DNA of 64,000 bases, taken from contig CAYZNW010000003.1 of the NCBI GenBank assembly GCA_964480345.1, positions 45,493-109,492 on the forward strand, given 5' to 3'. The stretch comes from an uncultured Candidatus Saccharibacteria bacterium. Its GTDB lineage: Bacteria > Patescibacteriota > Dojkabacteria > SC72. Positions 37,936-56,546 of the stretch are shown here, piece by piece. A program made the translations under genes and the position numbers. Within the stretch, counting starts at the first letter, position 1. Every line of letters starts with the position of its first letter. Under the pieces are notes generated by a model. The model ran no database searches. It saw nothing but the letters and a program-made list of their open reading frames with translations, and was not told where the DNA came from.

Positions 37936-38697
37936 ATGTTTGTAATATATAGTTCTATATTTTTTCTAGGTGCATCTCTTGCCAGTTTTATTAATGCTAC
38001 TCTGTATAGGATTGATAACAAGAAAGAGTTTAAGAATAATTGGAGGACAATAGCCAGAAGAAACTCTTACTGTGAGAACTGTAAAAAAGAGCTTAATTGG
38101 ATAGAGCTATTCCCTATTGTTGGTTATTTAATATATGGAGGTAAATGTTCTAAATGTAGAAAATCTATAAATATCTATTATCCAATCTCTGAGTTTATAT
38201 TGGGAGTTTCTACTCTACTCTTCTATTTAAACAGTGTTCCTTTTTATCTTTATATAATTCTGATTTTTCTGTTTATACTTTCCTACTATGATTATATATA
38301 TAAAGCGGTACCGAAGAGTTTAGTTCATGTGTTTTTAGGTATATCGATTTTGTTTTTTATTGTTTTTAATTTCAGTTTAATTACTTTGGTAATAGTTCTA
38401 TCTTTAGCTATATCTCTATTGATTCTATCTGCTTTAATGAAAAAATCTTTTGGATTAGGAGATGTTTTAATATTAATAGGGCTTGGTATTGTAATGTCTT
38501 ACAAAAGCTTTTTAGTTATGTTTTGGATTGGAATATTACTAGCCCTACTCTGTTCTATAGTTTATTCTATATTGAAAAAAAGAGATTTGAGGAAGATAAA
38601 GATTCCTATGATTCCATTTTTTACGATTTCATTTCTGATTACGTGTATATATGGGTTACATATATATGATTTACTAACTAACTGGTTATCTACTTAG
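37936..38697 (+). CDS. pilD: prepilin peptidase (A24 family, PilD)
   Basis: N-terminal Zn ribbon 'CENC...CSKC'; polytopic; 'GLGDVLILIGLG' catalytic Asp region. Confidence 0.8.
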   Translation: MFVIYSSIFFLGASLASFINATLYRIDNKKEFKNNWRTIARRNSYCENCKKELNWIELFPIVGYLIYGGKCSKCRKSINIYYPISEFILGVSTLLFYLNSVPFYLYIILIFLFILSYYDYIYKAVPKSLVHVFLGISILFFIVFNFSLITLVIVLSLAISLLILSALMKKSFGLGDVLILIGLGIVMSYKSFLVMFWIGILLALLCSIVYSILKKRDLRKIKIPMIPFFTISFLITCIYGLHIYDLLTNWLST

Positions 38698-41600
38698 CCC
38701 ACCAGAACGGTTGTTTTACTCCACTATTAAACCATTTACCGTGTCTCATAATCTGGTTCATTGTAGGTCCATCTACTGTATAGTCTAACTGTACTTGATT
38801 AATTATTGGAGATACATCTGTATCTGTGCTTGTTAATGTTGCTTTGTACTGGAAGAATCTGTAGCTACTTCCTAGAGTTATTAGTTCTGGAGATACGGTT
38901 GGTAGATACTCTTCACTTGTTATGTTATCTATCCATATATTTCTTCCTCCGTATGTATTGTCTACTCTCATTGTTAGAAGGTTGGCTCTATCTAAATGGG
39001 TGTCTAATGTTCTTCCTTTGATTGGTAAATACTCTTTCTGCCATTTAAATACATTTGCTTTGGTAGTAAAGCCACCTGTTGGGAATGTAGATATACTCTC
39101 CCAATTTCTAACTGTGATAGCTCCTGTGTCTTTGTTTACACTTGTTACTACTCCCTGTGCTATGTACTCTCCACTACTGTTTTGTTCTCTTACTATGATC
39201 TTCTCTCCTGTATATATGTTACTTCCTTTGCTCTTCATTCCTTTTACTGTTCCATCTATTGTAAAGGAGGTATCAGAGGATGATGTTATGAGGTTAGAGC
39301 TATCTAATCCTGCTCCAAACTCTATTTCAATGTTATGTGTTCTTAATCCTACTTCATATGCTTGTCTTATTTCATCTGCACTTCTTGCTATGTTGGAGAT
39401 TCTAACTTCGTCTATTTCTCCATTAAACATTTCGACATAATTAGTAAATCCAATATATGGTAAATTAGAATACCCACTCAATCTTAAATTATATGTTGTG
39501 ACAGGAGAACCGTATGCTGTTGAGTTTGATGCTTTGAGTTCACCATTTAGATATATCTTTAAACCAGAAGAGTCTCCTGTAGCTACTACATGATACCATT
39601 TGTTGAGTTCTACAAGGTTAATTGGAGTTAATAACACATTAGTTCCTCCTCTATCCAGAAATTCTAAAGCACCTGTTGTATTTAATCTGATACGGTACCC
39701 AGAGTTATCACCTTTGTTTATAAAATTAGCAACATCATTAAACTCCTTTGGTTTTATCCACGCCTCTAGGGTGATAGCAGATGGATTTAATGAGGTTGAA
39801 TCAGGTATGACAATATAATCTGAGGTACCATTGAAGTTCCTAGCTCCTCCTATTCGACCGTTATTGGTATATGTAGTTCCTATTGACATTCCGTTGTTAT
39901 TGTATCCTGAACTATCTTTGATATATGCTCCATTCCCATCTATTTCATCTAAGTGCCATAGACCTACTGTATTTGCATCTGGTTGATAGTTTGCATATGC
40001 ACTCTCTCCTACTGTTGTAGATATGTTCTCTCCTACTTTATCACTAGCTATATATACAGGGAGAGAAATTTTTGATGATAGATTCTGTGTTGGTAATAGA
40101 TAATTTGAATATATTGATTTAGGTGAAGAGTTACGATCTACACCTTGAGTGTATTCAGCTAATATTTCGGATGCTGATAAAGCTCTATTGTATATTTTAA
40201 CTTCATCTATTAATCCATTGAATCCTGCTTCTCCAGGTATTTGCTTACTAATATTTAACTCTGTATTAGTTAAATTAACAGTGACCGCATATGTACTAAC
40301 TGCACTTGTAGAGACCTGAGCTCCATTTTTGTAGCAATATATATTAGTACCATCGTAGGAAAAAGTGACATGATTCCATTGAGAAATATCAAGATAAATA
40401 AAACATTGGGCTCCATTCCATATACCCGCAGATATATTACCATCGACATTGTACACTAAATGAATATTACTTGGTTCATACCCTCCAAGGCCAAGAATCC
40501 ATTGTCTCATGGTTGGTGAAGCGTATGGCTTAAGCCATAAATCTACTGTATGTACTTTATCTCCTGTTCCTAATCCACTATTTGGAACTGTTATATAATC
40601 ATTAGTTCCATTAAAACTTCTGCTTTTTCCTACTCGCCCATCTACTATTGTTGTTCCGGTAGCAGTACCTACCCTATCTCCTACCTTATCTGCAACTGTA
40701 GTGCCTGATAGCTCATCCATATCCCAATAGGAGATTAATCCTGTATTCTTTTTTTCAAAGATTGTTTTTAGAGAAGAGTATTCTTCAAAAATCTCTTGAG
40801 TGGAAAGTGTACGATTATATATTTTTGGTTCGTCTAATTGTCCGTTGAAAAACCCCGCTGATGCTATATTTGATCCTAGATAGGTATCTTTATCAGGTCC
40901 TAATGTAAATGTAGATGCAAATTCATTTTCAAGTACACCATCTATATATAATCGAGTCTTAGTTCCATCATTTGTTCCTGTTATTAAATGCCAATTACCA
41001 TCATTTATAGAGGATTTGCTTTCATGGGTAGCTGAGTTGTTACCAGATGTGTTATCAAAATCTATTAACACTTTACCAGTTGAAGAAAATGCGTTTATAT
41101 ATAGGAATAGTCCTCTTGATTGGAATAACATTGAATTTGATGTTGTAGTAGTTTTTACCCAAATACTAGCACTCATAGAAGTGAAAGAAGAAAAATCTAT
41201 TAATGGGACTTGTACATAATCGCTAGTCCCATTGAAGCTTCTACTATTATTTGCCTTACCTTGTGCTATTGTAGTTCCTGTAGCAGTTCCGTTATATGTA
41301 CCTACACTATCTTTAACTACACTTCCACTATTCTCATCCATCTTCCAATATGATACTAATCCATCATTTACAGTAGTCCCTATTCTATTTGATTTATATG
41401 GAAGTTCTTGATTATATAACCTCTCTATTTCATCAGATGTTTTAGCTGCGTTGTATATACGTACATCATCAACAATACCATTAAAACCTTTCCACCTATT
41501 AATGATAATATCGCCACTTGCTTGTCTTATTCCCATGTTACTATATGGTATGCTACTAACTTCTTTCCCATTAACATATAATCTAATAACACTATTTGGA

Positions 41601-44600
41601 CTATCTATTACTCCTACAACATGATACCAAGAATCCTCAGCTATTATCCCCACAGGGCTATTAAGTACAGTACTAGCTACTCCTATGTTATCTACCGATG
41701 TTGATATAAAGCTAATATATTTACCAACTGTATTTATTACTAACATGTATTGTCTATCGGAGCAATTTGTCTCACTACAATCAGCTGCTCCTGTATTTTT
41801 ATTTATCAAATCCATCCAAGTACCACTAAGCGTAGAGGTTTTGAACCATGTTGCTACTGAGAGTTGACTACCACTACCATTAATATCTAAATCTGGAGTA
41901 TTTGGTAATGTTATGTAATCAGTACTTCCATTAAAACTCCTAGCTTTATCATACTTACCATCTACTATTGTTGTTCCTGTTGCACTACCATTACTACTCC
42001 CTACGCTGTCTTTTACTTCGCTACCACTTAATTCATCCATCTTCCAATGAGATACTAAACTATCATCTAATGTACTAGTATTATCTGCAGTCATATTACT
42101 ACTACTTTGTGTAAGAGTAGATCTTTTCTCTATACCTTCTAAATAGTCTGATTGAATTCTATCTGCTGCAAGAGCTTTATTGTATAATTTTACTTCGTCG
42201 ATTATACCTGACAGGGTTCCATTAGGATATGTGTTATCACCCGCTATGAACAAATCTCCACTTCCCTGCCTAATTCCACTACTGCTATATGCTGTAGAAG
42301 CCATTAGTGCTCCATTAAGATAGATACGCATATATCCGTTAGTGCTATCAATTGTACCAACAATATGATACCAAGTGTTTGGATTTATATATCCCCATCC
42401 AACATCTGTTTGTCCTACTCCTATGTTATCTACTGCCGTTGAAGAGAAAACTAAAGTACCACTCTGATTAAGAAACATAGCATATTGCCTATTCACTCCA
42501 CTGTCTGGATTTGTATCAGCCTTATAAAGTAGTGTATGCCAATTCCTTTGTGACATATCAGAAATATTCATCCAGAAACTAACAGTAATTTTACTACCAG
42601 CTCCATTAATATCTAAAGAGCTACTGTTTGGTATTCTTACAACACCAGTATTTCCATTGAAGCTTCTAGCTTTTGCATATTTTCCATCTACTATCCCTGT
42701 TCCAGTAGCTGTACCGTTATTACCTGTTCCTGATATATCACTGACAGTTGTTCCACTCTCTTCATTCATACTCCAATACCCAACTAATCCATCTTCTTTA
42801 TTATTGTATAAGCTACTATTATCAAAAGATCTTAATGTACTCTTTGCTGTATTTTCTTTCCACTCACTCCATGTACCATCATTAGGGTTGTTACTATTTC
42901 CACCTCTAATATGAAATCTAGTATTTCCCGAGTTATAGTTTGAAAGAACTTCTGAGGAAGTAAGAGATCTACTGTAGATTCGAACAGAATCCATCAATCC
43001 TTTATAGTTATTCCCTCCTGCATTTGTAAGCCTTCCCATCTCTAAATTTGTACTGTTAGAAACACTATTTATAGGTCCTGCATTTATCACATCTGCTAGT
43101 CGACCATCAAGATATAATGATAATATTGTAGAGGATTTTGTGGCTACCACATGATGCCATTGATCGTCTACAACAATAAAGTTTGAAGAGCCAATATTTT
43201 TTGTTCCTCCGCTATCGTGAACTTCAAACAATATCTTTCCTTTAGGTTCACCATTAATAGAGATAACACTTAAATTGTAACCAATTCTAGTTGGAGAAAA
43301 AACTTGTTTACTAATTAATGTCGGAAAGGATTCTGCAATAGCATAATCTGCTTTGAACCATACTTCCAAACTAAAGTCTCCTGTACTAAAATCACCTACT
43401 GTACTGTTAGATGCTGTTACATAATCATCAACTCCATCAAACATTAATCCTCCACCTCCCCATCTCCTGTTGTTGTATGTCCAACCACTACCTATAACCT
43501 TATCTTGTCCTGTCGTATCAGAAAAATTAGTTAGAGTTCCATTACAACCACTACCACAACTACCTCCACTACTTGCTACTGTTCCACTACTCTCATTGAA
43601 ATTCCACTGAGCTACTAAGCCAGTAGTGCTATACGGTACCTCCCCATCTCCTGTATTTATACCTGATACAGTAGAAGATACATTTACTTTTGATACACTT
43701 GATCCTGAATCAAATACTGTAGATTCATACTCTCCTGAATATCTCTCTTTACCATACAAATATGTCTTATATATCTCATCTGCACTTCTAGCTATATTGG
43801 ATAAACGTACCTCATCTACTAACCCATTAAAGCCTACTTCGCTCCCTGGTCCTTTACCAATATTTAACTCTGTATTAGCTAAATTGACAGGAACTCCAAC
43901 AGTAGGAGCATTACTAGATACCTGTACTCCATTCTTATAGCAATACATATTAGTTCCGTTGTAGGTGAAAGCTATATGATTCCACTGAGAAATATCAAGG
44001 CGAATAGGACATTGTGAACCACTCCATATACCAGCATAAATATTCCCATCAGTACCATATATGAGATGTATATTACCTTGGTCATATCCTCCCATCACAA
44101 GAAGCCATTGTCTTATTGTTGGTAGAGTATATGGTTTAATCCATAAATCTATTGTATGTGTCTTATCTCCTGTTCCTAATCCACTATTTGGAACTGTTAT
44201 ATAATCATTCTCTCCATCAAATTCGTATCCTTTCCCTATCTTCCCATCTACACCAATTGGTGATATATCTAACAACTTAATTGATGTGAAAAAAGTAACT
44301 TCAGCTACAATAATATTATTAGTTGTAGGAGTGAAATTAACCCAAGTAGCATTGTTATTATATTGCCAACTACTTCCACTATATTTAACAGCAACAAAAT
44401 GATTACTGTTATTTGCTTCTAATCCAGTTATACCTTGAGCTGAAAGAGATGGAGAATACATGATATATCCACTACCTGCTTCAGCATCTGTAACAGCTAT
44501 TCCAGAGTTGATAGTAGGAGTGATTATCCTAATCCCATTCCGATCTATAAAATAGCAATTAGCATCACCATATGTACACTCAATATCTATCTCTCCAGCA

Positions 44601-46678
44601 TTATCAACTCCTCCATAACGATTTAATTTAAAAGTAAGATTAGAGCTTTGTATGCCATAGCTCATACCATTTAAAGAAGTTGCAATATGGTTATTATTAG
44701 TAGAACTGTCGGCTGCTGGTGTTAATGCTGGTATTCTGTATCTAACAATAACTATTCCCGATCCACCGTTTCCGCCTGCAAGGTATGCTCCTGTAAATGA
44801 ACCCCCACCCCCTCCTCCACCTGTATTCGCTATACCATTAGTACCTGCACCATTTAGAACTCCACTTCCTCCACCTCCATTTCCACCAGTACCAACATAA
44901 GAGCCATTAACTTCTCCACCACCTCCACCTCCTGCATATACAACTGCAGTTCCTGTAATATCGCTAACTCTTCCAGCACCACCATTACCTGATCCTGAAC
45001 TGTTTCCTCCGTCTGCTCCCACACCACCTGCACCTCCACCTCCTCCATTTGTTCCTACCCATCCTGAAACTATGTATCCAGCACCTCCGTTATATCCTTG
45101 GGAACCAATTCCTCCTGTTGATAAAGGAGCGGATACAACAACAGCACCACCACCACCACTACCTCCACTTCCACCTGCAAGTTGCCCATGAGTTATTCCG
45201 GCACCCCCTCCTTCAGCAATCAGAGATGAGAAGGCCGAATCTTGTCCTTTATTACCATTATATGCACCTCCGTCTGCTCCTCCATTACCTCCATTCCCTA
45301 CAGTGACTGCAATATTCCCTTTAGATACAGTAAAAGAAGATTGCTCTACAAAACCTCCTGCTCCTCCTCCAGAACCAGTATTTGCACCACCCCCTCCTCC
45401 TCCTATAACTAACACATCCACTTTCCCATCTGTATGTGCTGTAAAAGTTCCACTAGAAGTAAAAGTATGAATCACATAATCACCAACCCTTGTTACTGTT
45501 CCACCACTTGCTGAAAAATATGGAAGATCTCCAAAACTCCAATGCCCCACAGTATTAGAATCCACAACAGGCTTCTCCACACCTAATAACTCTACCCCAC
45601 TCACACTAGATACATAATCTGAACTTATATATGTACCACTATCAAAATCTACCTTACTGTTATGAACAATACTAGGATCTATTCTAATTGGAAAAACCCT
45701 ATCATTCGAATACAACCAATCGGAATCTAAAACTAACCTTATCTCATACCTACCTCCATCAATATGACTAATATTAAACTCCACATCATACGTCTTACTA
45801 TTAACTCCATCCACTGCAAAACTAGGAAGAAAATGACTAACATAATTACCATACCTATCCTCAAAATAGTAAACCTCCCTACTACCCTCACCTACATTAA
45901 ACCAACCCTTCTTTAACATTAACCCTTCTTCAACACTCAAATCAAAAACATACTCATTAGCAGGTAGAGAACAATCCTGTACATCCTCACAATCTTTAAT
46001 ATATGAATCTAAATTACGAATAATTATCTCCTCCTTAAGACCTATTCCCTCTATGATCTGATACTCTAAATCTATACCTTTTGATATTTCCTTATTTACT
46101 ACTGTCTTCTTAGTAATACTATCTTTCTCTTCTTCTCCAAACACTCTTCCCAAATCAACTAATTCTGTATTACTCTTAATATCTCTGTTACCCATTATCT
46201 CTGATACCTCTTTCAACTTCTCTTCATCTTTATCATTTAATTTCTCTAAATCGCTAACCTTAACCCCCTTTATTGACATCTCTATACCGTAGCTTTTAAT
46301 AGGTCTGAAGAAATTCTTAACCTTATCCCAAAACCCTCTTGTATTTTCTTCAAAAGGATTCCTCTTACTAATATCTGATTCAAACCTAACCCACTGAACA
46401 TCAGGTTGATCTCTTTTACCAAAATCTACTGAAAATTTAGGATTCTTGTTCCCATAAATAGTATGACTATTTGTACTTTGCAAAAATATATCAGAGTTAG
46501 GTTTTACACTACTAATATAGTAGATGAGGAATGACAGAAGAATAGCTATTCCAATAACAATACCAAATATAAATGATTTCTTACCTTTTAAGTTCTTCCA
46601 ATTAAATCTTCTTTTACTGTTGTTGAGATGTTTTAGGACAGATTTCATCATCATAAATATTAACATAGTAGAATACAT
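38690..46678 (-). CDS. giant (2662 aa) membrane-anchored surface protein with a Gly-rich segment and at least 8 LamG/Concanavalin-A-like lectin modules
   Basis: It has an N-terminal TM helix and a ~220-aa GGxGG-rich region. Units of 'W.MDE.SG...NG.ATG......GK...SFNG..DY' ending 'DEVRIYN.ALS..EI' recur throughout. Confidence 0.8.
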   Translation of the reverse strand: MYSTMLIFMMMKSVLKHLNNSKRRFNWKNLKGKKSFIFGIVIGIAILLSFLIYYISSVKPNSDIFLQSTNSHTIYGNKNPKFSVDFGKRDQPDVQWVRFESDISKRNPFEENTRGFWDKVKNFFRPIKSYGIEMSIKGVKVSDLEKLNDKDEEKLKEVSEIMGNRDIKSNTELVDLGRVFGEEEKDSITKKTVVNKEISKGIDLEYQIIEGIGLKEEIIIRNLDSYIKDCEDVQDCSLPANEYVFDLSVEEGLMLKKGWFNVGEGSREVYYFEDRYGNYVSHFLPSFAVDGVNSKTYDVEFNISHIDGGRYEIRLVLDSDWLYSNDRVFPIRIDPSIVHNSKVDFDSGTYISSDYVSSVSGVELLGVEKPVVDSNTVGHWSFGDLPYFSASGGTVTRVGDYVIHTFTSSGTFTAHTDGKVDVLVIGGGGGGANTGSGGGAGGFVEQSSFTVSKGNIAVTVGNGGNGGADGGAYNGNKGQDSAFSSLIAEGGGAGITHGQLAGGSGGSGGGGAVVVSAPLSTGGIGSQGYNGGAGYIVSGWVGTNGGGGGAGGVGADGGNSSGSGNGGAGRVSDITGTAVVYAGGGGGGEVNGSYVGTGGNGGGGSGVLNGAGTNGIANTGGGGGGGSFTGAYLAGGNGGSGIVIVRYRIPALTPAADSSTNNNHIATSLNGMSYGIQSSNLTFKLNRYGGVDNAGEIDIECTYGDANCYFIDRNGIRIITPTINSGIAVTDAEAGSGYIMYSPSLSAQGITGLEANNSNHFVAVKYSGSSWQYNNNATWVNFTPTTNNIIVAEVTFFTSIKLLDISPIGVDGKIGKGYEFDGENDYITVPNSGLGTGDKTHTIDLWIKPYTLPTIRQWLLVMGGYDQGNIHLIYGTDGNIYAGIWSGSQCPIRLDISQWNHIAFTYNGTNMYCYKNGVQVSSNAPTVGVPVNLANTELNIGKGPGSEVGFNGLVDEVRLSNIARSADEIYKTYLYGKERYSGEYESTVFDSGSSVSKVNVSSTVSGINTGDGEVPYSTTGLVAQWNFNESSGTVASSGGSCGSGCNGTLTNFSDTTGQDKVIGSGWTYNNRRWGGGGLMFDGVDDYVTASNSTVGDFSTGDFSLEVWFKADYAIAESFPTLISKQVFSPTRIGYNLSVISINGEPKGKILFEVHDSGGTKNIGSSNFIVVDDQWHHVVATKSSTILSLYLDGRLADVINAGPINSVSNSTNLEMGRLTNAGGNNYKGLMDSVRIYSRSLTSSEVLSNYNSGNTRFHIRGGNSNNPNDGTWSEWKENTAKSTLRSFDNSSLYNNKEDGLVGYWSMNEESGTTVSDISGTGNNGTATGTGIVDGKYAKARSFNGNTGVVRIPNSSSLDINGAGSKITVSFWMNISDMSQRNWHTLLYKADTNPDSGVNRQYAMFLNQSGTLVFSSTAVDNIGVGQTDVGWGYINPNTWYHIVGTIDSTNGYMRIYLNGALMASTAYSSSGIRQGSGDLFIAGDNTYPNGTLSGIIDEVKLYNKALAADRIQSDYLEGIEKRSTLTQSSSNMTADNTSTLDDSLVSHWKMDELSGSEVKDSVGSSNGSATGTTIVDGKYDKARSFNGSTDYITLPNTPDLDINGSGSQLSVATWFKTSTLSGTWMDLINKNTGAADCSETNCSDRQYMLVINTVGKYISFISTSVDNIGVASTVLNSPVGIIAEDSWYHVVGVIDSPNSVIRLYVNGKEVSSIPYSNMGIRQASGDIIINRWKGFNGIVDDVRIYNAAKTSDEIERLYNQELPYKSNRIGTTVNDGLVSYWKMDENSGSVVKDSVGTYNGTATGTTIAQGKANNSRSFNGTSDYVQVPLIDFSSFTSMSASIWVKTTTTSNSMLFQSRGLFLYINAFSSTGKVLIDFDNTSGNNSATHESKSSINDGNWHLITGTNDGTKTRLYIDGVLENEFASTFTLGPDKDTYLGSNIASAGFFNGQLDEPKIYNRTLSTQEIFEEYSSLKTIFEKKNTGLISYWDMDELSGTTVADKVGDRVGTATGTTIVDGRVGKSRSFNGTNDYITVPNSGLGTGDKVHTVDLWLKPYASPTMRQWILGLGGYEPSNIHLVYNVDGNISAGIWNGAQCFIYLDISQWNHVTFSYDGTNIYCYKNGAQVSTSAVSTYAVTVNLTNTELNISKQIPGEAGFNGLIDEVKIYNRALSASEILAEYTQGVDRNSSPKSIYSNYLLPTQNLSSKISLPVYIASDKVGENISTTVGESAYANYQPDANTVGLWHLDEIDGNGAYIKDSSGYNNNGMSIGTTYTNNGRIGGARNFNGTSDYIVIPDSTSLNPSAITLEAWIKPKEFNDVANFINKGDNSGYRIRLNTTGALEFLDRGGTNVLLTPINLVELNKWYHVVATGDSSGLKIYLNGELKASNSTAYGSPVTTYNLRLSGYSNLPYIGFTNYVEMFNGEIDEVRISNIARSADEIRQAYEVGLRTHNIEIEFGAGLDSSNLITSSSDTSFTIDGTVKGMKSKGSNIYTGEKIIVREQNSSGEYIAQGVVTSVNKDTGAITVRNWESISTFPTGGFTTKANVFKWQKEYLPIKGRTLDTHLDRANLLTMRVDNTYGGRNIWIDNITSEEYLPTVSPELITLGSSYRFFQYKATLTSTDTDVSPIINQVQLDYTVDGPTMNQIMRHGKWFNSGVKQPFWWAK
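40250..40630. repeat. intragenic DNA repeat, copy 2 (paralogous to 43850-44230)
   Basis: About 70 nt is near-identical (40551-40618 vs 44151-44215) within ~380 nt of 75-95% similarity. It encodes duplicated LamG modules. Confidence 0.6.
43850..44230. repeat. intragenic DNA repeat, copy 1
   Basis: See copy 2. Confidence 0.6.
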
Positions 46679-46742: not shown

Positions 46743-47510
46743 ATGAAAACTGCCAAAAAACACATATACTCTTACAGAGGAAAATATGAAGGATACACCC
46801 TAATAGAAATGCTAGTAGTAATGGCCATATTCGTCATCTTCGTAGCTATGTCTTTCTCTTCTTTCAGTGGATTACAGAATACAATTAAGATGAACGAGTA
46901 CTCATTAACGCTGGAACAAAATATTACCAATGTACAAAGAGCATCTATGTTGTTGGAGAAGAAAGCAGATGACAATTGGCTATACGGATTAGGAATAGAT
47001 CTAACTAAATTAAACCTAGAGGGTCATTACGATACATTTAAATGGTGTTCTCCTTTTACAGATTATGGAGATGTAACAACTAAATCATATATACCTTCTT
47101 TTAATCCAGCTCTAGATCTAGAATCTAGCTTAAACTTTGGCAAGAATGGATATATTCCTATCCCTACAGAAGCATCATATGCAGAAGGAACTTGCAAAAA
47201 TAGTACTTTATCCTCCATTGTTAGTTTAGTGGGATACAAAACAAGTTTAACTCCTCCAAAAGGTAAAATAACCACAAACAGCAATCCATTTAACAATAGA
47301 CCACTAAAATATCTTGTATTTGAGTCTGTTTCTGGAAGAGCATTCTTCTATGATGAAACAGGGAGAGTTGTCAATTACGATGCTAAAGGAAGACCCGTAA
47401 CAGGTCAACCTATCAACTTAGTTATTACCATAGATCCTGATACAAATATACCAATTAAGGAGATAGTTGTTGAGAATCTCTCTGGTCGTATATCAACTAT
47501 AAAGAAATAG
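46743..47510 (+). CDS. minor type IV pilin / pseudopilin
   Basis: Prepilin motif 'G|YTLIEMLVVMAIFVI'. Confidence 0.7.
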   Translation: MKTAKKHIYSYRGKYEGYTLIEMLVVMAIFVIFVAMSFSSFSGLQNTIKMNEYSLTLEQNITNVQRASMLLEKKADDNWLYGLGIDLTKLNLEGHYDTFKWCSPFTDYGDVTTKSYIPSFNPALDLESSLNFGKNGYIPIPTEASYAEGTCKNSTLSSIVSLVGYKTSLTPPKGKITTNSNPFNNRPLKYLVFESVSGRAFFYDETGRVVNYDAKGRPVTGQPINLVITIDPDTNIPIKEIVVENLSGRISTIKK

Positions 47511-47514
47511 TTTT

Positions 47515-48069
47515 ATGAAAATGAAAATAGAGACAAGTAAATATGAAGCAATGGGATTTGTTGAAGCTCTTGTAGCTATCATGGTAGTTGGTATATCAGC
47601 TGTAGTTCTAATGGAGATAGCTGCTAACACAATGCAAAATATGATACAGAATGAAAGAGTTGATCAAGTTACTCAGTACGCTGTAGAGGGGGCTGTAATG
47701 GCTCAGGTAATAGCTAGTAAAAACAAAGAAGCTGGAGGAGGGCTGTTTCCTACTGAGACAGGAGTAGAAAGATGTTATGCTATGGAGAAACTTCCTGATG
47801 GTGGATATGGGTTTGTAAAAGATGGAGAAAATGGATTTATAAGATTTTTAAATACTGACAGAAACCTATACAAAGAACAGGCTACTGTATACGATGAGAA
47901 AGGAGAAAAAACTGAATACTTTAGAATACTGTGTATTAACTTCCCTGCAGAATCAGATTACTCCTTCTTAATTGGACGAGTAGTTGTTGGACAAAGCACC
48001 TCTTCTGGAACTATAAGCAAGGGGAATCAGGTTAAAGATTACTCATATTATACCTCTATAAAATTGTAG
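47515..48069 (+). CDS. minor type IV pilin / pseudopilin
   Basis: 'G|FVEALVAIMVVGI'. Confidence 0.65.
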   Translation: MKMKIETSKYEAMGFVEALVAIMVVGISAVVLMEIAANTMQNMIQNERVDQVTQYAVEGAVMAQVIASKNKEAGGGLFPTETGVERCYAMEKLPDGGYGFVKDGENGFIRFLNTDRNLYKEQATVYDEKGEKTEYFRILCINFPAESDYSFLIGRVVVGQSTSSGTISKGNQVKDYSYYTSIKL

Positions 48070-48071
48070 AT

Positions 48072-48782
48072 ATGAAAGAAACAAATATTGAAGAACAAAA
48101 ATATGAAGCATTTAGTTTAGTAGAAATGTTATTAACTATTGTCATCATTGGGTTTGTAATGCTCATATCTGCTGTTACATTAACTACTTTAATTAAAGTC
48201 TCTACAGTCTCTAGTAATAAAACTAGAGTAAGAAATGAATCAGAGTATATATTGGAGTTAATTCGAAAAACAGTAAGAAACTCTAATCCATCAGATGTAT
48301 TTATTTTTAATTCACAAAATGCAAGAGTGTATGCGAGAAACAGTACTACTAATTCGATTACTATAGAAAGTACTGGAAGAGAAGATTTGAAAGCACTTTA
48401 CTCCTCACCTCTTGGAGAAAACGAGGTAGGGAATGAAATTCATTTTAGACCGTACGGCTACAATAGTTGGGTTTGTATAGGATTTTTCAAAGATAGGGAT
48501 TCGGAGAAAGGATATATAGTTAAAACAAATGTGGAAGATTTACTTAATAATCATGATTCATGTTTCCAAAGTGCACCTGGCAAATTCTTGATATCTTTAA
48601 ACTCAGACTATGTATCTGTGGATACTTTCTCTATAGCATATTCTAAAAGTTCAGATAACAATTATCTAATTCGTTTTGATATAGAAGCACAACCAGTTTT
48701 CTGGTATTTTGCTACTGGCGCTCCAGTTAGTAGGAAAGTTTTAAGACAGACAGTTGTGAAGACTGAAGGTTTGATATGGTAG
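48072..48782 (+). CDS. minor type IV pilin / pseudopilin
   Basis: 'A|FSLVEMLLTIVIIG'. Confidence 0.65.
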   Translation: MKETNIEEQKYEAFSLVEMLLTIVIIGFVMLISAVTLTTLIKVSTVSSNKTRVRNESEYILELIRKTVRNSNPSDVFIFNSQNARVYARNSTTNSITIESTGREDLKALYSSPLGENEVGNEIHFRPYGYNSWVCIGFFKDRDSEKGYIVKTNVEDLLNNHDSCFQSAPGKFLISLNSDYVSVDTFSIAYSKSSDNNYLIRFDIEAQPVFWYFATGAPVSRKVLRQTVVKTEGLIW

Positions 48783-48809
48783 TTACTATATGTTATCTTT
48801 ACTGTATAT

Positions 48810-49760
48810 ATGAATAACTGCTCTAAAAATCACCAAAACTTTCATGGATATTCTGCGCAGGCTATAGTAATAGCGTTGGTGGTCATAGTTGTCTCAGTTA
48901 TTATTGGTATGTCAGTAATATCGAGATCTTTGCGAGATAAAAAATCTGCAAATACTGAAAGATACTCCACTGAAGCTTTAGAGATCTCAGATTCAGTCAT
49001 AGATATCTTTTCTACTGTTGATACACAAACTCTGTTTGATAATATCGAATATGAAGATGCTAAGTTGAAGCGATTTAATGGTATAGCACAGCTTCAAGAG
49101 TATTTAAAAAGAATAGGAATAGAGAGTGATATATCCTCTCTATTTAAAAATTGTAGCGATAGCAATTCTGGAATAGTAGTATCTATGGATAAGGTAGATT
49201 CTGAAGAATTAGAATTGTTGGAATCAAACACATTTGGATATAGGCTTAATCCTTTGCAAGTGGCACAACAGTGTACTCTTTCTATTACTGCAGAACCTAG
49301 AGCAGCCTCTTCTGTTGGATTAATACTGCACAAGATATATGGAAAAGGATATCCTTCAGCTATAGAGTACAAGCGATATGATTTTGATGATGTAATAGCT
49401 TATTGTGTGTCTGAAGATACTACTTCATGTAAGAACAACTCTTTAGCAGATGGAGCTTGGAATATCTGGAACAAGGCAACTCCTATGAAAATAAATCTGA
49501 AAGAGGAGAAAGATGGTTTCGCTCTTGATGAAGTGAGAATCACTGCTATTGGGGGAGCATTAGGAATAGAGAACTCATTGAGTGTTGCAGGATGTGCAGG
49601 TGATATGGACTTAAAGATGGCAAAACTTACTGTAATGACTACATGTAATGGAGAATCAAGAGGTAAAGAGGTGTTAATACCAAGTCCTAATAATTTAAGT
49701 TACTCTACCCTCTTTGATTATGTCTTTTACAATAATCAAGGTTTTTTTCAACCATATTAA
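48810..49760 (+). CDS. large minor pilin lacking Glu+5 (GspK/PilX-like tip pseudopilin candidate)
   Basis: It has 'G|YSAQAIVIALVVIV' with Gln at +5. It is the largest of the quartet (316 aa). Confidence 0.5.
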   Translation: MNNCSKNHQNFHGYSAQAIVIALVVIVVSVIIGMSVISRSLRDKKSANTERYSTEALEISDSVIDIFSTVDTQTLFDNIEYEDAKLKRFNGIAQLQEYLKRIGIESDISSLFKNCSDSNSGIVVSMDKVDSEELELLESNTFGYRLNPLQVAQQCTLSITAEPRAASSVGLILHKIYGKGYPSAIEYKRYDFDDVIAYCVSEDTTSCKNNSLADGAWNIWNKATPMKINLKEEKDGFALDEVRITAIGGALGIENSLSVAGCAGDMDLKMAKLTVMTTCNGESRGKEVLIPSPNNLSYSTLFDYVFYNNQGFFQPY

Positions 49761-49778: not shown

Positions 49779-50177
49779 ATGGATAATTCAAACAAAACAA
49801 TATTAATCATAGAAGATGAGCAAGATCTTTTAGATTCATATAAAGAGCTAATCAGTATGGGGGGATATTCGGTAGCTACCTCCATAGATGGATATCACGG
49901 TCTTGATTACTTAGCTACAAATATTGGTCATGTAGATCTGGTTCTTTTAGATCTGATGATGCCTGGTGTAGATGGTCTAGAAGTATTACGAGCCATTAAA
50001 GCTGATAAGGATAAGTATGGTGATATGCCAATCATCGTTTTAACAAATATGTCTAGTGAACTAGTCATAAAAGAAGCTTTTGATCTAGGGGCATCTTCAT
50101 ACTTGGTTAAATCAGACTTAGATTATGATGGTTTACTTAAGGAGCTTAATAAATATTTAGGAAGCAGTGATAAATAA
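49779..50177 (+). CDS. single-domain CheY-like response regulator receiver (PilH-like)
   Basis: 'ILIIEDE', 'LVLLDLMMPGVDG', 'YLVKS'. Confidence 0.8.
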   Translation: MDNSNKTILIIEDEQDLLDSYKELISMGGYSVATSIDGYHGLDYLATNIGHVDLVLLDLMMPGVDGLEVLRAIKADKDKYGDMPIIVLTNMSSELVIKEAFDLGASSYLVKSDLDYDGLLKELNKYLGSSDK

Positions 50178-51658
50178 TGAGTAAATATTACTTCTCAAAA
50201 GAATCAAAGATAAAGAGAATTCTACTTCGAATATTCATAGTCGTATTAGTAATTTCTTTAGGATATGGTGCATACTACTACTTTTCAAATATTGATAAGG
50301 ATATAACAACAAGATATTTAAATGGTACTAAATATGAATTCCTTAACAGATTTTATGAGAGTAATAATGGATACACCTATACATATACTGCCAAAGGGAT
50401 AGTTTACAATGCAAAAAAGAGTGATTCAGAGGTGACTTTTGATATTAATGCTTGGGATCCAAAAACAAAAGAGAGCTTGTACTACTCCAATATATCTCTC
50501 GGAAATGTAAAATCAGGTGCCCTATCAATAGAGGATGCTTTCTATGATTTCAAGCCAGTAAAGATACAGTTTGATTTCGTAAAGAAGAAATTGGTTAATG
50601 TAGAAGTTACTGATTTAGTTTTAGAACAGAAAGAGTATCAGTATGTAAATGACAGCATATTAAGGTTCCTTACAAAAGGATATTCAGCAAATATTAATGA
50701 GGAAGGCTCCACATATTCTGCAGATTTACCAGTAAATATATTTGATAGAAATGGGCAAATTTCTCTCTTGCCATTGTATGTTAACGGTGATGCTTTAACT
50801 GCTTTGTATGGCATAGCAGTATTAACAAAAGATACTGAAGTAGATACCACCTTTAATCCTGATACATACATTGAAGCGTCTGTCTCTCGAATTAGTAATA
50901 GTATGAAAGCAAACGGTATTCTGTCTACTATGATTCCTGATGGATGCTCTTTGCTTTTGAAAATAGAGCAAGAAGGAGTATACTCTGACTCTCAAATTAA
51001 TAAATTACGAAATATTTTTTGTTCTCAAGGAGAATTTACTTCCATATTTTCAAGAAAAGAAGAAAGTAAGTGGAAGGATTTACTCACTTTTGTAGGTTCA
51101 GAGAAATTAGATACTGCTTACAAACCAGATGTCGAATTCGTAGGACTTATGTCTCTGTCTGATGCCTACTCTATGGCGACTTTGTACGGTAAGACTCTTA
51201 CTGAGGCGGAGGTTACAAATGTAGAGAACAGAATAGTAAATTCAGTGATATCATCTGGACGAGATTTAACGACATACGCTGTTCCGTACAAAACCTTATG
51301 TTCGCTAGCCTACTCTTTAACCTCTGTACCTAACTACAGTAATATGGAGAAGTATAATTCGGTAGTTGTTGGATTAGAAGATACAGTAAGCTCATATTCT
51401 AATAACGAGGAGCTACTGAAACTGTTAGAGAAAGACACAAAATCTACTTTGATGTGTGCACAGGCTTTTGCAAATAGTGAAGATAAAAGAGTTAGAGATC
51501 TTTTTAGTTCTACTTTAATAAAGATGTTCTATTTAAATATGTATGATAAAGAGGGACATACTGGTCTTTGGTCAGTATTCCCTGAGTATATGATGATGAG
51601 TATTGAAGATAGTGTAAGGTATTTTAACTTGTTAAAGGTAGAGTATGCGAAAAAGTAG
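50177..51658 (+). CDS. N-terminally anchored extracytoplasmic hypothetical protein (493 aa)
   Basis: Single N-terminal TM; no recognised motifs. Confidence 0.45.
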   Translation: MSKYYFSKESKIKRILLRIFIVVLVISLGYGAYYYFSNIDKDITTRYLNGTKYEFLNRFYESNNGYTYTYTAKGIVYNAKKSDSEVTFDINAWDPKTKESLYYSNISLGNVKSGALSIEDAFYDFKPVKIQFDFVKKKLVNVEVTDLVLEQKEYQYVNDSILRFLTKGYSANINEEGSTYSADLPVNIFDRNGQISLLPLYVNGDALTALYGIAVLTKDTEVDTTFNPDTYIEASVSRISNSMKANGILSTMIPDGCSLLLKIEQEGVYSDSQINKLRNIFCSQGEFTSIFSRKEESKWKDLLTFVGSEKLDTAYKPDVEFVGLMSLSDAYSMATLYGKTLTEAEVTNVENRIVNSVISSGRDLTTYAVPYKTLCSLAYSLTSVPNYSNMEKYNSVVVGLEDTVSSYSNNEELLKLLEKDTKSTLMCAQAFANSEDKRVRDLFSSTLIKMFYLNMYDKEGHTGLWSVFPEYMMMSIEDSVRYFNLLKVEYAKK

Positions 51659-54077
51659 ATATATTTTAATAACAATAGCATCATCGTTAATACTACTCTC
51701 TCTCTCTTCAAGATTCGCTCAGTCTGCATGGGAACCTATTGGAACTAATGCAGATGGAAGCATACTGTATCAAAATGAAGAAGGAGGATGGTGTTCAGGT
51801 CCTGCAGGAGGTACAGAACCAGAGTGCCACCATGAAAGTGAACCACCATGCCAAACTCATGCTTGTACTCTTCCTGCCTGTCCTGATGATACTGTCCTAT
51901 ACAATACAGGATATTCTACACAATATACTGTTAGCTGTGATAAAGGTTGTGGAGAAGTAGAAAGAAAATCGTGCTATGAAAGACCCACAACATGTAATCC
52001 AGTATATGAGAATTGCGAAGATTCATACATATACAGTTTACAATCAGAAGTACAGTTTCAACCATTACAAACAACAAACAAAATGGGGTATACATCTACT
52101 ACATACTCAGGTTTAGAAATAAATAACCCTGTAGGAGTAGAAGCTAGATATTGGAGTACAGTTGATAACAGTAAACTTGAAGCTATATATTTCTGGATGG
52201 CGAAAGAAGGAAGTGGAGCTCCTGGGGTAACAGGAAGTAGTGTAGAAGAGATGATATGCACAGAATTTCAGATACGCCCCCAACCAAATGGAGAATGGGA
52301 ACATGTATGTACAAAAACTGCAAATATATCGCCAACAAAAACAGTAGGTATTGAGTGGTTGTATGACAATCAAGTATCAGCAGGAAATTCAATATCAAAT
52401 GGAAGTTGGGGGTTCATGGTTAGAAAAGTAAACGGTAATTGGTCAGATGTATATGTACCTCTTGTGACAAATAGCAGAACGTATTGGGCAAAGATAACAA
52501 ATGTGGGAACTACATTTACACTCCACTCTAAATCAGGTAGACCATTAGTAAATATCTCTGATTTAAAAATATCACAAACAGACAAAGTAATTTCAAATTT
52601 TAGAATAACCTTTCTAAATGAAAATTCAGGAGTATCTAACTATGAAAAAGTATCAGAGGGAGTATATAACGCATATACGATGGTAAACGATGAATTTGGA
52701 TTTACACCTTGGGATAACTACACAAGTCAGGAAATCAAAAACAAATTAGGGTACAAACCAAATCAGATTAGACTTAGTAATCAATGGAAAAAAGGACCAA
52801 GCTGGGGAGTAGATCTTACTAGACCTGCAATTAGCAGGTTACAATCGATAATCCCCTCCTCTACTAGATTAATGATAGATTGGGAAGGTCAAGATTTGGA
52901 AAGCTCTATCTCCTACTCTGTTGGTAATGTATTTAGATTAAAAGATGCATTAGTAAAAAACAGTCCTGTGATCTATCCTGCAGGAAGTGGTAGAACATTT
53001 ATACTAAATTTTCAATCAGAAAGTGATCTTGTAGGAAAGATAAATGGAAGTAATATCCTATGGCAGAAGGAAAACAGTAAATCAGGAGCAGAAGATATTG
53101 ATTTAGTAGATAACCGAGGAGGGTATATGGATTTCTATGTAACTGTATTTGATAAAGGTGGAAATCATCTTACACAAAATGTTCGTTTCAAATTAGGAGA
53201 GTGGATTCAGACAAAAGGAGGATTCTTCTACAGTAAAAGCGGAGCATATTTAGATACGCGTCGTATTACTCCAGGAATCTGGATAGAGAGAAATCTGTTT
53301 GATAAATATGGATTTAAAGAAAATCAGGTAGATTTAGGAACTGAGTTAATATCTGGAAATGTTTCCAGACAATCAGCTTTATCAGTTGTAAACTATCTAA
53401 ATCAAAATGGCGTATTTAGAGCTATCAATTATGCCGGTCATCGCAAATCAGATGTGTATTATGAATACTTAGAGAAAATGCAAAAATTAGATGAAAAGAA
53501 ATATGAGAAAATTACTGTTGGTAATCTATCAGGTAATTTAACTGACAGCTGTTTTGATAAAGAGAAATGTAAAAACTCCATAGTAGTGAATACTGTAAAC
53601 AGTGATTTAACAGTAAACTCAAACTTCACATGTGATACTAGAGCAGTTATGCTAGTTAATGGAAATATCTATATAAATCCAGATATTACTAATTTAGATA
53701 ACCGATCAGCTTGTGTATTTATTGCAAAAGAGAATATATATATCAGAGAGGGAGCACATAAATCTGGAGCAAATATAGGTTTTGATGTCGTAGAAGGATA
53801 CTTCTTAGCTAATGGGACAATTAAAATAGAGAAAGAAAACAAACCATCTTCTGATAGAACAGATGGCTTATTCATAGAGGGAGGAATACTCTCATTTGGA
53901 ACTGATCCTGCAGAAAATGCTAGTATTATGCTAAAAAGAGAATTACATTTGGCCGATAGACATCCATATCCAGTATTAAATATAATTCATCATCCAAAAT
54001 ATGGTAAACTAATGCAAGATTTGTTTGAAGGTGATAGATTAGTATTTAAGACAGAGGTTGGTTTTAAACAATTCTAG
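51645..54077 (+). CDS. secreted 810-aa protein with Cys-rich N-terminal module
   Basis: Signal peptide; ~14 Cys in the first ~120 mature residues. Confidence 0.5.
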   Translation: MRKSRYILITIASSLILLSLSSRFAQSAWEPIGTNADGSILYQNEEGGWCSGPAGGTEPECHHESEPPCQTHACTLPACPDDTVLYNTGYSTQYTVSCDKGCGEVERKSCYERPTTCNPVYENCEDSYIYSLQSEVQFQPLQTTNKMGYTSTTYSGLEINNPVGVEARYWSTVDNSKLEAIYFWMAKEGSGAPGVTGSSVEEMICTEFQIRPQPNGEWEHVCTKTANISPTKTVGIEWLYDNQVSAGNSISNGSWGFMVRKVNGNWSDVYVPLVTNSRTYWAKITNVGTTFTLHSKSGRPLVNISDLKISQTDKVISNFRITFLNENSGVSNYEKVSEGVYNAYTMVNDEFGFTPWDNYTSQEIKNKLGYKPNQIRLSNQWKKGPSWGVDLTRPAISRLQSIIPSSTRLMIDWEGQDLESSISYSVGNVFRLKDALVKNSPVIYPAGSGRTFILNFQSESDLVGKINGSNILWQKENSKSGAEDIDLVDNRGGYMDFYVTVFDKGGNHLTQNVRFKLGEWIQTKGGFFYSKSGAYLDTRRITPGIWIERNLFDKYGFKENQVDLGTELISGNVSRQSALSVVNYLNQNGVFRAINYAGHRKSDVYYEYLEKMQKLDEKKYEKITVGNLSGNLTDSCFDKEKCKNSIVVNTVNSDLTVNSNFTCDTRAVMLVNGNIYINPDITNLDNRSACVFIAKENIYIREGAHKSGANIGFDVVEGYFLANGTIKIEKENKPSSDRTDGLFIEGGILSFGTDPAENASIMLKRELHLADRHPYPVLNIIHHPKYGKLMQDLFEGDRLVFKTEVGFKQF

Positions 54078-54121: not shown

Positions 54122-55153
54122 ATGGCTAAGCTGCCCGATCATGTTGGAATAGATTTTGGAACTCACTCAGTAAAAGCTGTAGAGTTGGTAAACATCTCTT
54201 CGAATACACCAAAGTTATCAAATTTAGGATCCCAATTAACTCCCAAAGGAGTTATAAACAGCGAGAACAAAGCTGATCAAGAAAAACTAGCTGGAGTATT
54301 GAAAAAACTTTATGAATCCTCAGGATTAAAGAATAAAGCTGTAGTTATGGCACTACCAGAGTTCTCTGTGTTCACTAGATTCTTAGAATTCCCAGGAGTA
54401 AAACAGGAAGAGTTAAAAGATGTTGTATACTATGAAGCCAAGCAGTATATCCCTATGCCACTTACAGAAGTTCAGTTAAGCTATGTACCAATAGGATTTA
54501 ATGCTGAAAGAAATGCTCCTAAAGTATTGATAGTAGCAGCACCTAGAAAAATAATAGATATATATATTAATGTAGCTGTCTTTGCAGGACTGGATCTGGT
54601 AGCAATGGAAACTGAATCAGTGGCAATGGGAAGAGCTATGTTTAAATCTACAGGCAAAAAGAACTTAGTAATGCTTGATTTCGGAGCTAACAGTACAGAT
54701 ATGAGTATTTTAGCAGATGGTAATCTTGTATTCTCACAAAGTATAGCAATCGGTTCTGACTCATTAACCCAAGCGATTATTAATAAATTCAACTTCGAAT
54801 ACCAAAGAGCTGAAGAGTTTAAACGGAACTACGGAGTAGTTGAAAATGTCCTTGAAGGTAAAATCTATGCAGTACTCTCCCCCATATTAGAATCAATCAT
54901 GATAGAAGTAAGACGAGGAGTTGAATTCTACAAATCTAGAACTTTAGCCTCAGCTCCCTCAGAGTACATATTAAACGGAGATGGTGCTTTACTACCAGGA
55001 ATCAAAGAGTTCATAGCTAAAAGTTTAGGCGCTACTGTTTCCGTAGCTGTTCCATGGAACAATATATTAGTAGAAGATAAATTCAAAGATATCGTTGCAA
55101 AAGGAGGCCCATCCTACTCTGTTGCAATAGGACTTGCATTAAAAGATGAATAA
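54122..55153 (+). CDS. pilM: type IV pilus assembly protein PilM (actin-like ATPase fold)
   Basis: 'HVGIDFGTHSVKAVEL' N-terminal phosphate-1 motif. Confidence 0.75.
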   Translation: MAKLPDHVGIDFGTHSVKAVELVNISSNTPKLSNLGSQLTPKGVINSENKADQEKLAGVLKKLYESSGLKNKAVVMALPEFSVFTRFLEFPGVKQEELKDVVYYEAKQYIPMPLTEVQLSYVPIGFNAERNAPKVLIVAAPRKIIDIYINVAVFAGLDLVAMETESVAMGRAMFKSTGKKNLVMLDFGANSTDMSILADGNLVFSQSIAIGSDSLTQAIINKFNFEYQRAEEFKRNYGVVENVLEGKIYAVLSPILESIMIEVRRGVEFYKSRTLASAPSEYILNGDGALLPGIKEFIAKSLGATVSVAVPWNNILVEDKFKDIVAKGGPSYSVAIGLALKDE

Positions 55154-55820
55154 CCAACAAAATCAAACACAACCAAATAACCCTGTTCCTAAAACTCCAG
55201 AAGAAACACAGGCTAATTTGAAGAAGGAACAATTCATCGATACAAACATGTTAGATGGCTCCTCTGGTATTAACCTTGTACCATTGATGAGCAAAGAAGA
55301 AATTGTCAAAGAGGAGAAGAAACAGAAGTTAAATATGTCCTCTATCATTATTATCATTATCCTTATTGTCATAACCATCATTGTAGTAGGATTCAATGTA
55401 ATATCAAAAATGGAATTAAATTCTGCTAAATCAAAATTAACAGAATTAGAAAATGAAGCAAACACATACTCTGAGAAAATAAAAAGTAATGATGAAATTC
55501 TTGACAGAGTATTTCTGTACAAAGAGATTGAAAGTAAACAGTACTCTTCTAAATCAGTAGTTGAATATATTACAGATATAGCAAGGAAGAGTGGCAATGT
55601 AAGCTTAATATCATTTGATTTCGTAGGAAAAGAGTCAATTGCATTTGAGGGAAATTCTGAAAACTTAGAAACAGCAGCAAAGTTTTGGTATCTTCTAAAC
55701 AGTGATACTAATTTTGAGAATATGAGCATGGAAACTATTTCCAAAACCCCTTCTGAAATTAGATTCTCTTTTGAAGGGAAAATATTAGTAGATAGATTTT
55801 TAAACTCTGAGAAGATATAA
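55146..55820 (+). CDS. PilN-like bitopic pilus assembly protein
   Basis: Cytoplasmic N-terminus, single TM, then coiled coil; overlaps the pilM stop. Confidence 0.55.
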   Translation: MNNQQNQTQPNNPVPKTPEETQANLKKEQFIDTNMLDGSSGINLVPLMSKEEIVKEEKKQKLNMSSIIIIIILIVITIIVVGFNVISKMELNSAKSKLTELENEANTYSEKIKSNDEILDRVFLYKEIESKQYSSKSVVEYITDIARKSGNVSLISFDFVGKESIAFEGNSENLETAAKFWYLLNSDTNFENMSMETISKTPSEIRFSFEGKILVDRFLNSEKI

Positions 55821-55823
55821 GAC

Positions 55824-56546
55824 ATGGCAGAATCAGTACCAATACAAACACAACAAGCAACAACAAAGGAAACATTAAAACAAGCTAATAACGCTAAAAT
55901 TAAACCTAAGTTAAAACTGACTGATTTAATAATACCGATAACTTTAGGTTTAGTTTCTATAATAATTAGTGTTTTTGTATTTGTACCTATGGTTGAGTCA
56001 GCATTTACATCAAGGACAGAATTAAAAGATGTAAAATCTAAACAGACTCAGATAACTAATCTTAACAGAGCAGTAAGTTCCATAGATGATGGAACTATGC
56101 AGATTGATCTATTGAATGCGAAAAAAGTTATTCCTAAATCTTTAACAGTCTCTAGCTTTATATACTATGTAGATGAATTAGCTAAACAGCTGAATTTAAC
56201 ATCAAAAACCTTATCTGCAGGAGATATTCAAATTACTACTGGAGGTCGAGATGAGAAGAAAAACTACTCTGGAGTTAGTGGTCCATTAGCATACTCTGGT
56301 ACAAGAGAAGATGTACTTAACTTCTTAGATAGCCTTTATGCTGCTTCCCCATATATTATCTCGGCAGACAATATATCATTAGAGCAGTCTTCCATGACAG
56401 CTGAGTGGAAAGTTGCACTTAACATAACAGGATATTATGTTTTAGAAAAAGATTACAGAGTAAATCTATACCTTCCGTTTAGTGTCTATACAAACAAACC
56501 AGAAGTAATTAAAACCTTTACTGAAAAAGCTGAAAAGTTGAAATAG
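55824..56546 (+). CDS. PilO-like bitopic pilus assembly protein
   Basis: Single TM 'LIIPITLGLVSIIISVFVFVPMV' followed by a coiled coil; position after pilM/N. Confidence 0.5.
   Translation: MAESVPIQTQQATTKETLKQANNAKIKPKLKLTDLIIPITLGLVSIIISVFVFVPMVESAFTSRTELKDVKSKQTQITNLNRAVSSIDDGTMQIDLLNAKKVIPKSLTVSSFIYYVDELAKQLNLTSKTLSAGDIQITTGGRDEKKNYSGVSGPLAYSGTREDVLNFLDSLYAASPYIISADNISLEQSSMTAEWKVALNITGYYVLEKDYRVNLYLPFSVYTNKPEVIKTFTEKAEKLK

Follow-up and report, generated by a model that had tools for sequence, protein, structure and literature searches.

In this study, we have analysed four consecutive open reading frames (ORFs), here called mp1 to mp4, in a 64,000-nucleotide stretch of contig CAYZNW010000003.1 from an uncultured bacterium deposited as Candidatus Saccharibacteria (the window, meaning the whole stretch of DNA that was analysed). 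The genes mp1 (46743..47510, 255 amino acids), mp2 (47515..48069, 184 amino acids, the smallest), mp3 (48072..48782, 236 amino acids) and mp4 (48810..49760, 316 amino acids, the largest) are all read from the forward strand and are separated by gaps of 4, 2 and 27 nucleotides. An initial annotation had called them a minor-pilin quartet whose largest member lacks the glutamate at position +5 (Glu5 or E5); the four consecutive ORFs, the peptide strings quoted for them and the size of the fourth were all found as described. The quartet lies within a complete type IV pilus (T4P) cluster, the gene order of which, according to Pfam scans and synteny, is shared with relatives. The window has a GC content of about 33%, and the nearest named relatives of its proteins are found in metagenome-assembled genomes (MAGs) of ‘Candidatus Dojkabacteria’/WS6. 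Based on the results presented below, we consider it probable that these four genes make up the core set of minor pilins for a single T4P system, with mp4 as the cap, in a Dojkabacteria-type bacterium belonging to the candidate phyla radiation (CPR).

Prepilin signatures of mp1 to mp3

Judged by their sequences, mp1 to mp3 are class-III prepilins with Glu5. With the predicted cleavage site marked by an arrow, the leaders and mature starts are MKTAKKHIYSYRGKYEG↓YTLIEML for mp1, MKMKIETSKYEA↓MGFVEAL for mp2 and MKETNIEEQKYEA↓FSLVEML for mp3. Glu stands at +5 in mp1, and in mp2 and mp3 as well provided that cleavage follows Ala and not Gly. The claim that the first three proteins keep Glu at +5 agrees with their orthologues, but the string originally quoted for mp2, FVEALVA, would put Glu at +3 and has to be shifted to the Ala register. 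We chose this register because Tyr at -3 together with a small residue at -1 is common to all five pilins of the window (KYEG↓YTLIE in mp1, KYEA↓MGFVE in mp2, KYEA↓FSLVE in mp3, YKA↓FTLIE in the major pilin and GYSA↓QAIVI in mp4), because 10 out of 10 mp2 orthologues read [AGS]↓[MLV]GF[VI]E, and because an hhalign comparison of the mp2 and mp3 profiles aligned the leader, the cleavage site and the Glu (90.8% probability). The mature N-terminus of mp2 also shows an invariant Gly at +2 ([MLV]-G-F-[VI]-E), so that a Gly-Phe pair occupies the second and third positions after the predicted cut.

The corresponding motifs are [AG]↓[YF]T[LM][LIVM]E, kept in 10/10 orthologues of mp1, and [AG]↓[FVL][ST]L[VI]E, kept in all 11 loci checked for mp3; mp2 is found between these two genes in all 10 loci with a full block. 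Among the 82 window ORFs of at least 80 amino acids, the class-III/E5 pattern occurs only in the major pilin and in mp1 to mp3, and Y-x-[AGS] with 18 or more uncharged residues after it occurs only in mp4, which argues that the clustering of these signatures is not due to chance. Pfam N_methyl matches mp1 (E 3.4e-7) and mp3 (E 1.3e-4), both above the cut-off, and the mp1 profile hits the N-terminal helices of type IV pilins with structures in the PDB (E 5e-5). Against PDB chains, the mp3 profile gave weak N-terminal matches only, and beyond these no pilin match was obtained for mp2, mp3 or mp4, either with single sequences or with profiles. The NCBIfam matches of mp1 (ComGD, GspJ, GspH and PpdA) are N-terminal and below cut-off, and those of mp3 (PpdB, ComGF and GspH) are weak and N-terminal as well. 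These NCBIfam matches, which span only the first ~60-100 residues and stay below the cut-offs, do not suffice to assign mp1 to mp3 to the H, I or J subunits. Invariant cysteines are present in mp1 (C102 and C151) and mp3 (C135 and C164), and the presence of conserved cysteines in all four proteins fits an extracytoplasmic location. In this lineage, the -1 residue of the prepilin cleavage site is usually Ala and sometimes Gly or Ser, and the -3 residue is often Tyr; the standard N_methyl models miss mp2 and score other prepilins of the lineage weakly.

The mp4 family and its predicted fold

The fourth protein begins with MNNCSKNHQNFHGYSA↓QAIVIALVV. Two rounds of homology search returned 119 homologues, which carry no Pfam domain and no informative name, and these define the family motif Y(-3)-x-[A/G/S](-1)↓Q(+1)-A-L-A-I(+5). 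Within this set, Gln at +1 is present in all 119 sequences; Tyr at -3, a small residue (A/G/S) at -1, Ala at +2 and Ile at +5 are each present in 118/119; the basic leader has 4-16 residues in 117/119; and an acidic residue between +1 and +22 is found in none. More distant representatives have Tyr or Phe at -3 and are variable from +2 to +4, and they keep Gln at +1 and never show Glu5. The absence of Glu5 from mp4 is thus robust, and orthologues with Glu at +5, which were looked for, were not found. The same alignment corrects the Gln at +5 of the initial annotation, which came from a wrong register: across the family this Gln is +1 and position +5 is Ile. Taking the Gly of mp4 as the -1 residue would make the Gln +4, and this Gly position is G, R, S or K in the orthologues.

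When 1.84 billion representative proteins were searched exhaustively with a profile, only 175 were found, which indicates a small and lineage-restricted family. Its records are titled Dojkabacteria, WS6 or generic Patescibacteria, the only others being third-party (TPA) MAGs labelled Saccharibacteria. We also considered that Tyr at -3 co-varies between mp4 and the true pilins, and discarded this idea; in loci L027 and L030 mp4 keeps the Tyr where the true pilins lack it, so that Y(-3) is a feature of mp4 itself. Among 94 members of the family, the most frequent weak Pfam match is PilX_N (25/94, best E 0.0012, sub-threshold), which does not match the mp4 of the window. T2SSK is absent from the 25 most frequent Pfam families of these 94 members (E<=1) and has no match in the window mp4, and no Pfam match to ComGG was obtained for mp4.

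An AlphaFold2 model of mp4 built from 94 sequences (pLDDT 87.2, pTM 0.75) predicts a continuous 53-residue α1 helix (residues 16-68), which begins at the predicted mature N-terminus and is followed by a β-rich globular part, the whole chain beyond residue 112 being β. In a fold comparison, the model matched GspI/XcpV (5bw0_B, score 7.2), GspI (3ci0_I, 6.3), EpsI (2ret_A, 6.1), the Streptococcus sanguinis minor pilin PilA (7o5y_B, 6.1), GspK (3ci0_K, 5.8) and Thermus PilA4 (6xxd_A, 5.6), interspersed with similarly scoring hits to nucleoplasmin, cupin and other β-sandwich folds. A Foldseek search of the PDB with mp4 found nothing at E <= 0.001 and returned only weak capsid-like and jelly-roll- or carbohydrate-binding-module-like sandwiches. 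We read the model as a pilin core with an extra β-sandwich, a pilin assignment made on modest scores.

In six members of the family (P0138, P0140, P0145, P0149, P0153 and P0155; 608-2144 amino acids), the mp4 scaffold carries large added domains, either as insertions (total length 608-849 amino acids) or as C-terminal extensions (total length 1549 and 2144 amino acids). The insertion of P0149 is 45-47% identical to residues 656-798 of a 2662-residue lectin-rich protein of the window (38690-46678, reverse strand). This protein combines seven Laminin_G_3 (ConA-like lectin) domains with a Gly_rich_2 domain, its N-terminal segment is hydrophobic, and its gene stands between those of PilD and mp1 in this genome only, being absent from that place in L003, L006-L008, L011 and L012.

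The pilus cluster, its conservation and the mp4/p810 pairs

Apart from the lectin-rich gene, the genes of the pilus cluster are all on the forward strand. Upstream of the quartet are PilB (32554-34365, Pfam T2SSE), a second ATPase of the PilB/PilT family (34389-36002, T2SSE), PilC (36006-37217, T2SSF), the major pilin (likely start 37289, end 37858; MKKTSYKA↓FTLIEML from its translation; N_methyl and T2SSG) and the prepilin peptidase PilD (37936-38697, A24_N_bact and Peptidase_A24). The second ATPase has 537 amino acids, which is long for a PilT-type retraction motor, and is 31% identical to the adjoining PilB over 331 residues. Downstream of mp4 are a stand-alone response-regulator receiver of 132 amino acids (49779..50177, Response_reg E 8.8e-22), two genes named for the lengths of their products, p493 (50177..51658, 493 amino acids, whose sequence shows a hydrophobic segment at the N-terminus; no match in Pfam or NCBIfam) and p810 (51645..54077, 810 amino acids, whose sequence suggests a Sec-type signal; no family match), then PilM (54122-55153, PilM_2 E 1.2e-52), a PilN-like gene (55146-55820, weak PilN match, E 0.018) and a PilO-like gene (55824-56546) that is named by position only and has no family match. 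No secretin or PilP homologue was found among the cluster genes scanned, and the lack of a secretin there fits a cell without an outer membrane. A paralogue of mp4 or p810 was not found elsewhere in the window, and a scan for promoters and terminators, which gave fewer sites than shuffled sequence, was uninformative.

The conservation of this arrangement was followed in 46 genome loci and four contigs that carry mp4 homologues, and these fall into two contexts, cluster and satellite. In the cluster context, the order is PilB-PilT-PilC-pilin-PilD-mp1-mp2-mp3-mp4-receiver-(p493)-p810-PilM-N-O. The full block mp1-mp2-mp3-mp4-receiver follows PilD in 10 loci (L003, L006-L008, L011, L012, L027, L030, L047 and L049) at 30-65% sequence identity, and three fragments at contig ends (L004, L005 and L010) agree with this order, which bears out the conserved minor-pilin block proposed at first. 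The cluster loci keep Glu5 in mp1 to mp3, and an mp4 gene fills the fourth minor-pilin slot in every one that spans the region after mp3. In L027 and L030, PilM comes directly after the receiver; L027 instead carries a p810-like gene upstream of PilD. The receiver is directly 3' of mp4 in the 11 cluster loci with downstream sequence (57-77% identity), and its retention at this place suggests a PilG/PilH-like control of the pilus.

The satellite context comprises about 33 loci (within L001, L009 and L014-L050), in which a p810 homologue is followed by an adjoining or overlapping mp4-like gene, with no pilus genes nearby. The p810 homologue of L001, for example, is 27% identical over 580 residues (E 8e-52). 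Gene order is reversed between the two contexts, p810 then mp4 in the satellites and mp4-receiver-p493-p810 in the pilus cluster. Tandem pairs or p810-like genes are found in L018, L021, L023, L026 and L050, and one genome can hold several satellites (L031 and L034 are on one contig, L001 and L020 in one MAG). Since mp1 to mp3 never occur in satellite loci, the conserved unit is mp4 with p810. Some satellite loci also have a p493-like gene upstream; tblastn detected p493-like segments of weak conservation near the pairs of L009, L018, L020, L031 and L034, and a BLASTP comparison of p493 with the 409-residue gene product of L001 gave no match. As for p810, its N-terminus shows an apparent Sec-type signal and then a Cys-rich region. 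It was ruled out as a PilY1 homologue on the basis of fold, as the C-terminal β-propeller of PilY1 was not found in it. We regard p810 as a candidate tip-associated adhesin, an analogue of PilY1 and not a homologue.

A putative tip complex and its alternatives

Filaments of this kind grow from tip to base, and their first subunit has no partner above it with which Glu5 could form a salt bridge (PMC10191384, PMC7541494, PMC8727766); for this reason, Glu5 is not expected in a cap. An E5-less subunit is described on the core minor-pilin tip complex in general (PMC10191384), with PilX and GspK as capping subunits (PMC7541494) and ComGG as their counterpart in monoderms (PMC8727766). We infer that mp4 has a cap role of the PilX/GspK/ComGG type. 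In the mechanism that we propose, PilD, encoded in the same cluster, would cleave mp1 to mp3 behind a small residue, which in this lineage is Ala more often than Gly, and mp4, with the same short basic leader, Tyr at -3 and small residue at -1, would presumably be cut by PilD too. It would then enter first and sit atop a priming complex with mp1 to mp3, which would nucleate polymerisation of the major pilin and end up at the pilus tip. There, mp4 may couple the large non-pilin protein p810 to the tip, in the way of PilX and PilY1, as suggested by the β-rich globular part of mp4 together with its strict gene pairing with p810. Another point in favour of mp4 as a pilus subunit is that some relatives, like modular pilins, have large domains added to the mp4 scaffold.

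The quartet would thus work like FimU-PilVWX/PilY1, GspHIJK and ComGDEFG. Like the PilX/PilY1 sets of type IVa pili, it comprises a row of four minor-pilin genes, of which the largest comes last and lacks Glu5, and has nearby a gene whose large product bears a type I (Sec-type) signal; PilX_N is the commonest weak Pfam match of mp4, and several alternative sets exist in Myxococcus xanthus too (PMC7541494). It differs from them by having no above-threshold sequence match, its cluster has neither a secretin nor an outer-membrane part, and only the mp4/p810 pair is multiplied here, not the whole quartet. The GspH-I-J-K genes of the type II secretion system (T2SS), with GspK as the cap (PDB 3CI0), also end in a large E5-less subunit, but the cluster studied here, with its PilT-type ATPase and PilMNO, encodes a pilus rather than a secretion system. 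The pilin sheet of GspK (PDB 3CI0) contains a large inserted α-helical domain; such a domain is missing from the mp4 model, and mp4 has no T2SSK match. We thus rejected mp4 as a member of the GspK family, with which it shares the absence of Glu5. The initial description of mp4 as GspK/PilX-like fits the E5-less cap role known from the literature, but family membership is not supported, as no GspK, PilX or ComGG match above threshold was obtained by sequence.

The ComGD-E-F-G set of monoderm Firmicutes offers a likeness in its setting, in its four minor pilins of which the last is without Glu5, and in the weak N-terminal matches of mp1 and mp3 to ComGD, ComGE and ComGF. ComGG, a small protein of roughly 100-130 amino acids, differs from mp4, which has 316 amino acids with an extra domain and no ComGG match; Com systems are also not known to have PilT-like or PilMNO genes, whereas both are present in the cluster here. 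ComGG lacks E5 and is essential for linking the other minor pilins (PMC8727766). The closest description from the CPR is that of PilX1 and PilX2 of the Saccharibacteria episymbiont TM7x, its largest minor pilins, with non-canonical signal peptides and extra domains; the added β domain of PilX1 is jelly-roll-like, and a role as a tip or host-binding subunit was proposed (PMC11623550). By description, mp4 resembles them as the largest minor pilin of a CPR bacterium, with a non-canonical signal and an added β domain, but paired p810 satellites are not described in that study (PMC11623550). A tip-priming set of this kind is therefore known, and the multicopy mp4/p810 satellites may be the part that is new.

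Several results weigh against the proposed set. No curated pilin model of Pfam or NCBIfam, N_methyl included, matches the mp4 of the window; its Gln at +1, invariant in the family, is atypical of substrates of a prepilin peptidase; mp2, its supposed partner, has no match in Pfam, NCBIfam or PDB sequence searches; and most genes of the mp4 family lie outside pilus clusters, adjoining p810, which fits a pilus-independent role too. In the strongest alternative, mp4 could be an uncleaved single-pass signal-anchor protein that holds or chaperones p810 at the surface, with its place in the operon reflecting co-regulation and with mp1 to mp3 alone as minor pilins. In favour of such an anchor are the ~33 pairs away from pilus genes, several in one genome, the lack of a pilin-model match for mp4 and its Gln at +1, the weak jelly-roll- or carbohydrate-binding-module-like Foldseek matches, and the TM7x analogues PilX1 and PilX2, which are not predicted PilD substrates (PMC11623550). 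We nevertheless hold it to be unlikely, as the nearly invariant leader of mp4 mirrors the leaders of the true pilins encoded with it, its 53-residue helix runs on into a pilin-like sheet with pseudopilin fold matches and is not a short transmembrane anchor, and mp4 has a fixed place in the fourth slot of all cluster loci that extend that far. Even less probable, to a degree that we give it little weight, is that mp4 is a membrane part of the assembly platform or alignment complex, never extruded and standing in for missing PilP-like components: its single N-terminal hydrophobic helix with an extracytoplasmic β domain in the model, and the lack of a secretin or PilP homologue among the scanned cluster genes, would suit this role, but PilM, PilN-like and PilO-like genes are already in the cluster, many paralogues paired with variable secreted proteins are not expected of platform proteins, and insertions of 300-1800 amino acids into or after the mp4 scaffold fit a displayed subunit better.

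Returning to mp4 as a tip cap, the satellites allow a further and more tentative proposal, which we regard as possible without expecting it to hold: the mp4/p810 pairs, sometimes with p493, could be interchangeable tip cassettes, such that one machine with one mp1-3 core would use several paralogous E5-less caps, each with its own secreted partner. If so, an ultrasmall episymbiont would vary in this way what its pili bind. The domain insertions of some mp4 relatives, of which one shares 46% identity with part of the neighbouring 2662-residue lectin-rich protein, would then serve the same purpose by another way.

Few surface machines are conserved in CPR/Patescibacteria; type IV pili belong to these and are believed to serve in the attachment to host cells. 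On the reading that we favour, Dojkabacteria, as another deep monoderm-type lineage, would follow the universal scheme, in which three E5 minor pilins are joined by one E5-less cap. This reading would also provide two sequence signatures that standard models overlook, Y-x-[A/G/S]↓Q-A-L-A-I for the cap subunit and a local prepilin cleavage site with Ala at -1. Finally, the multicopy mp4/p810 pairs represent a testable candidate for the diversification of the pilus tip.

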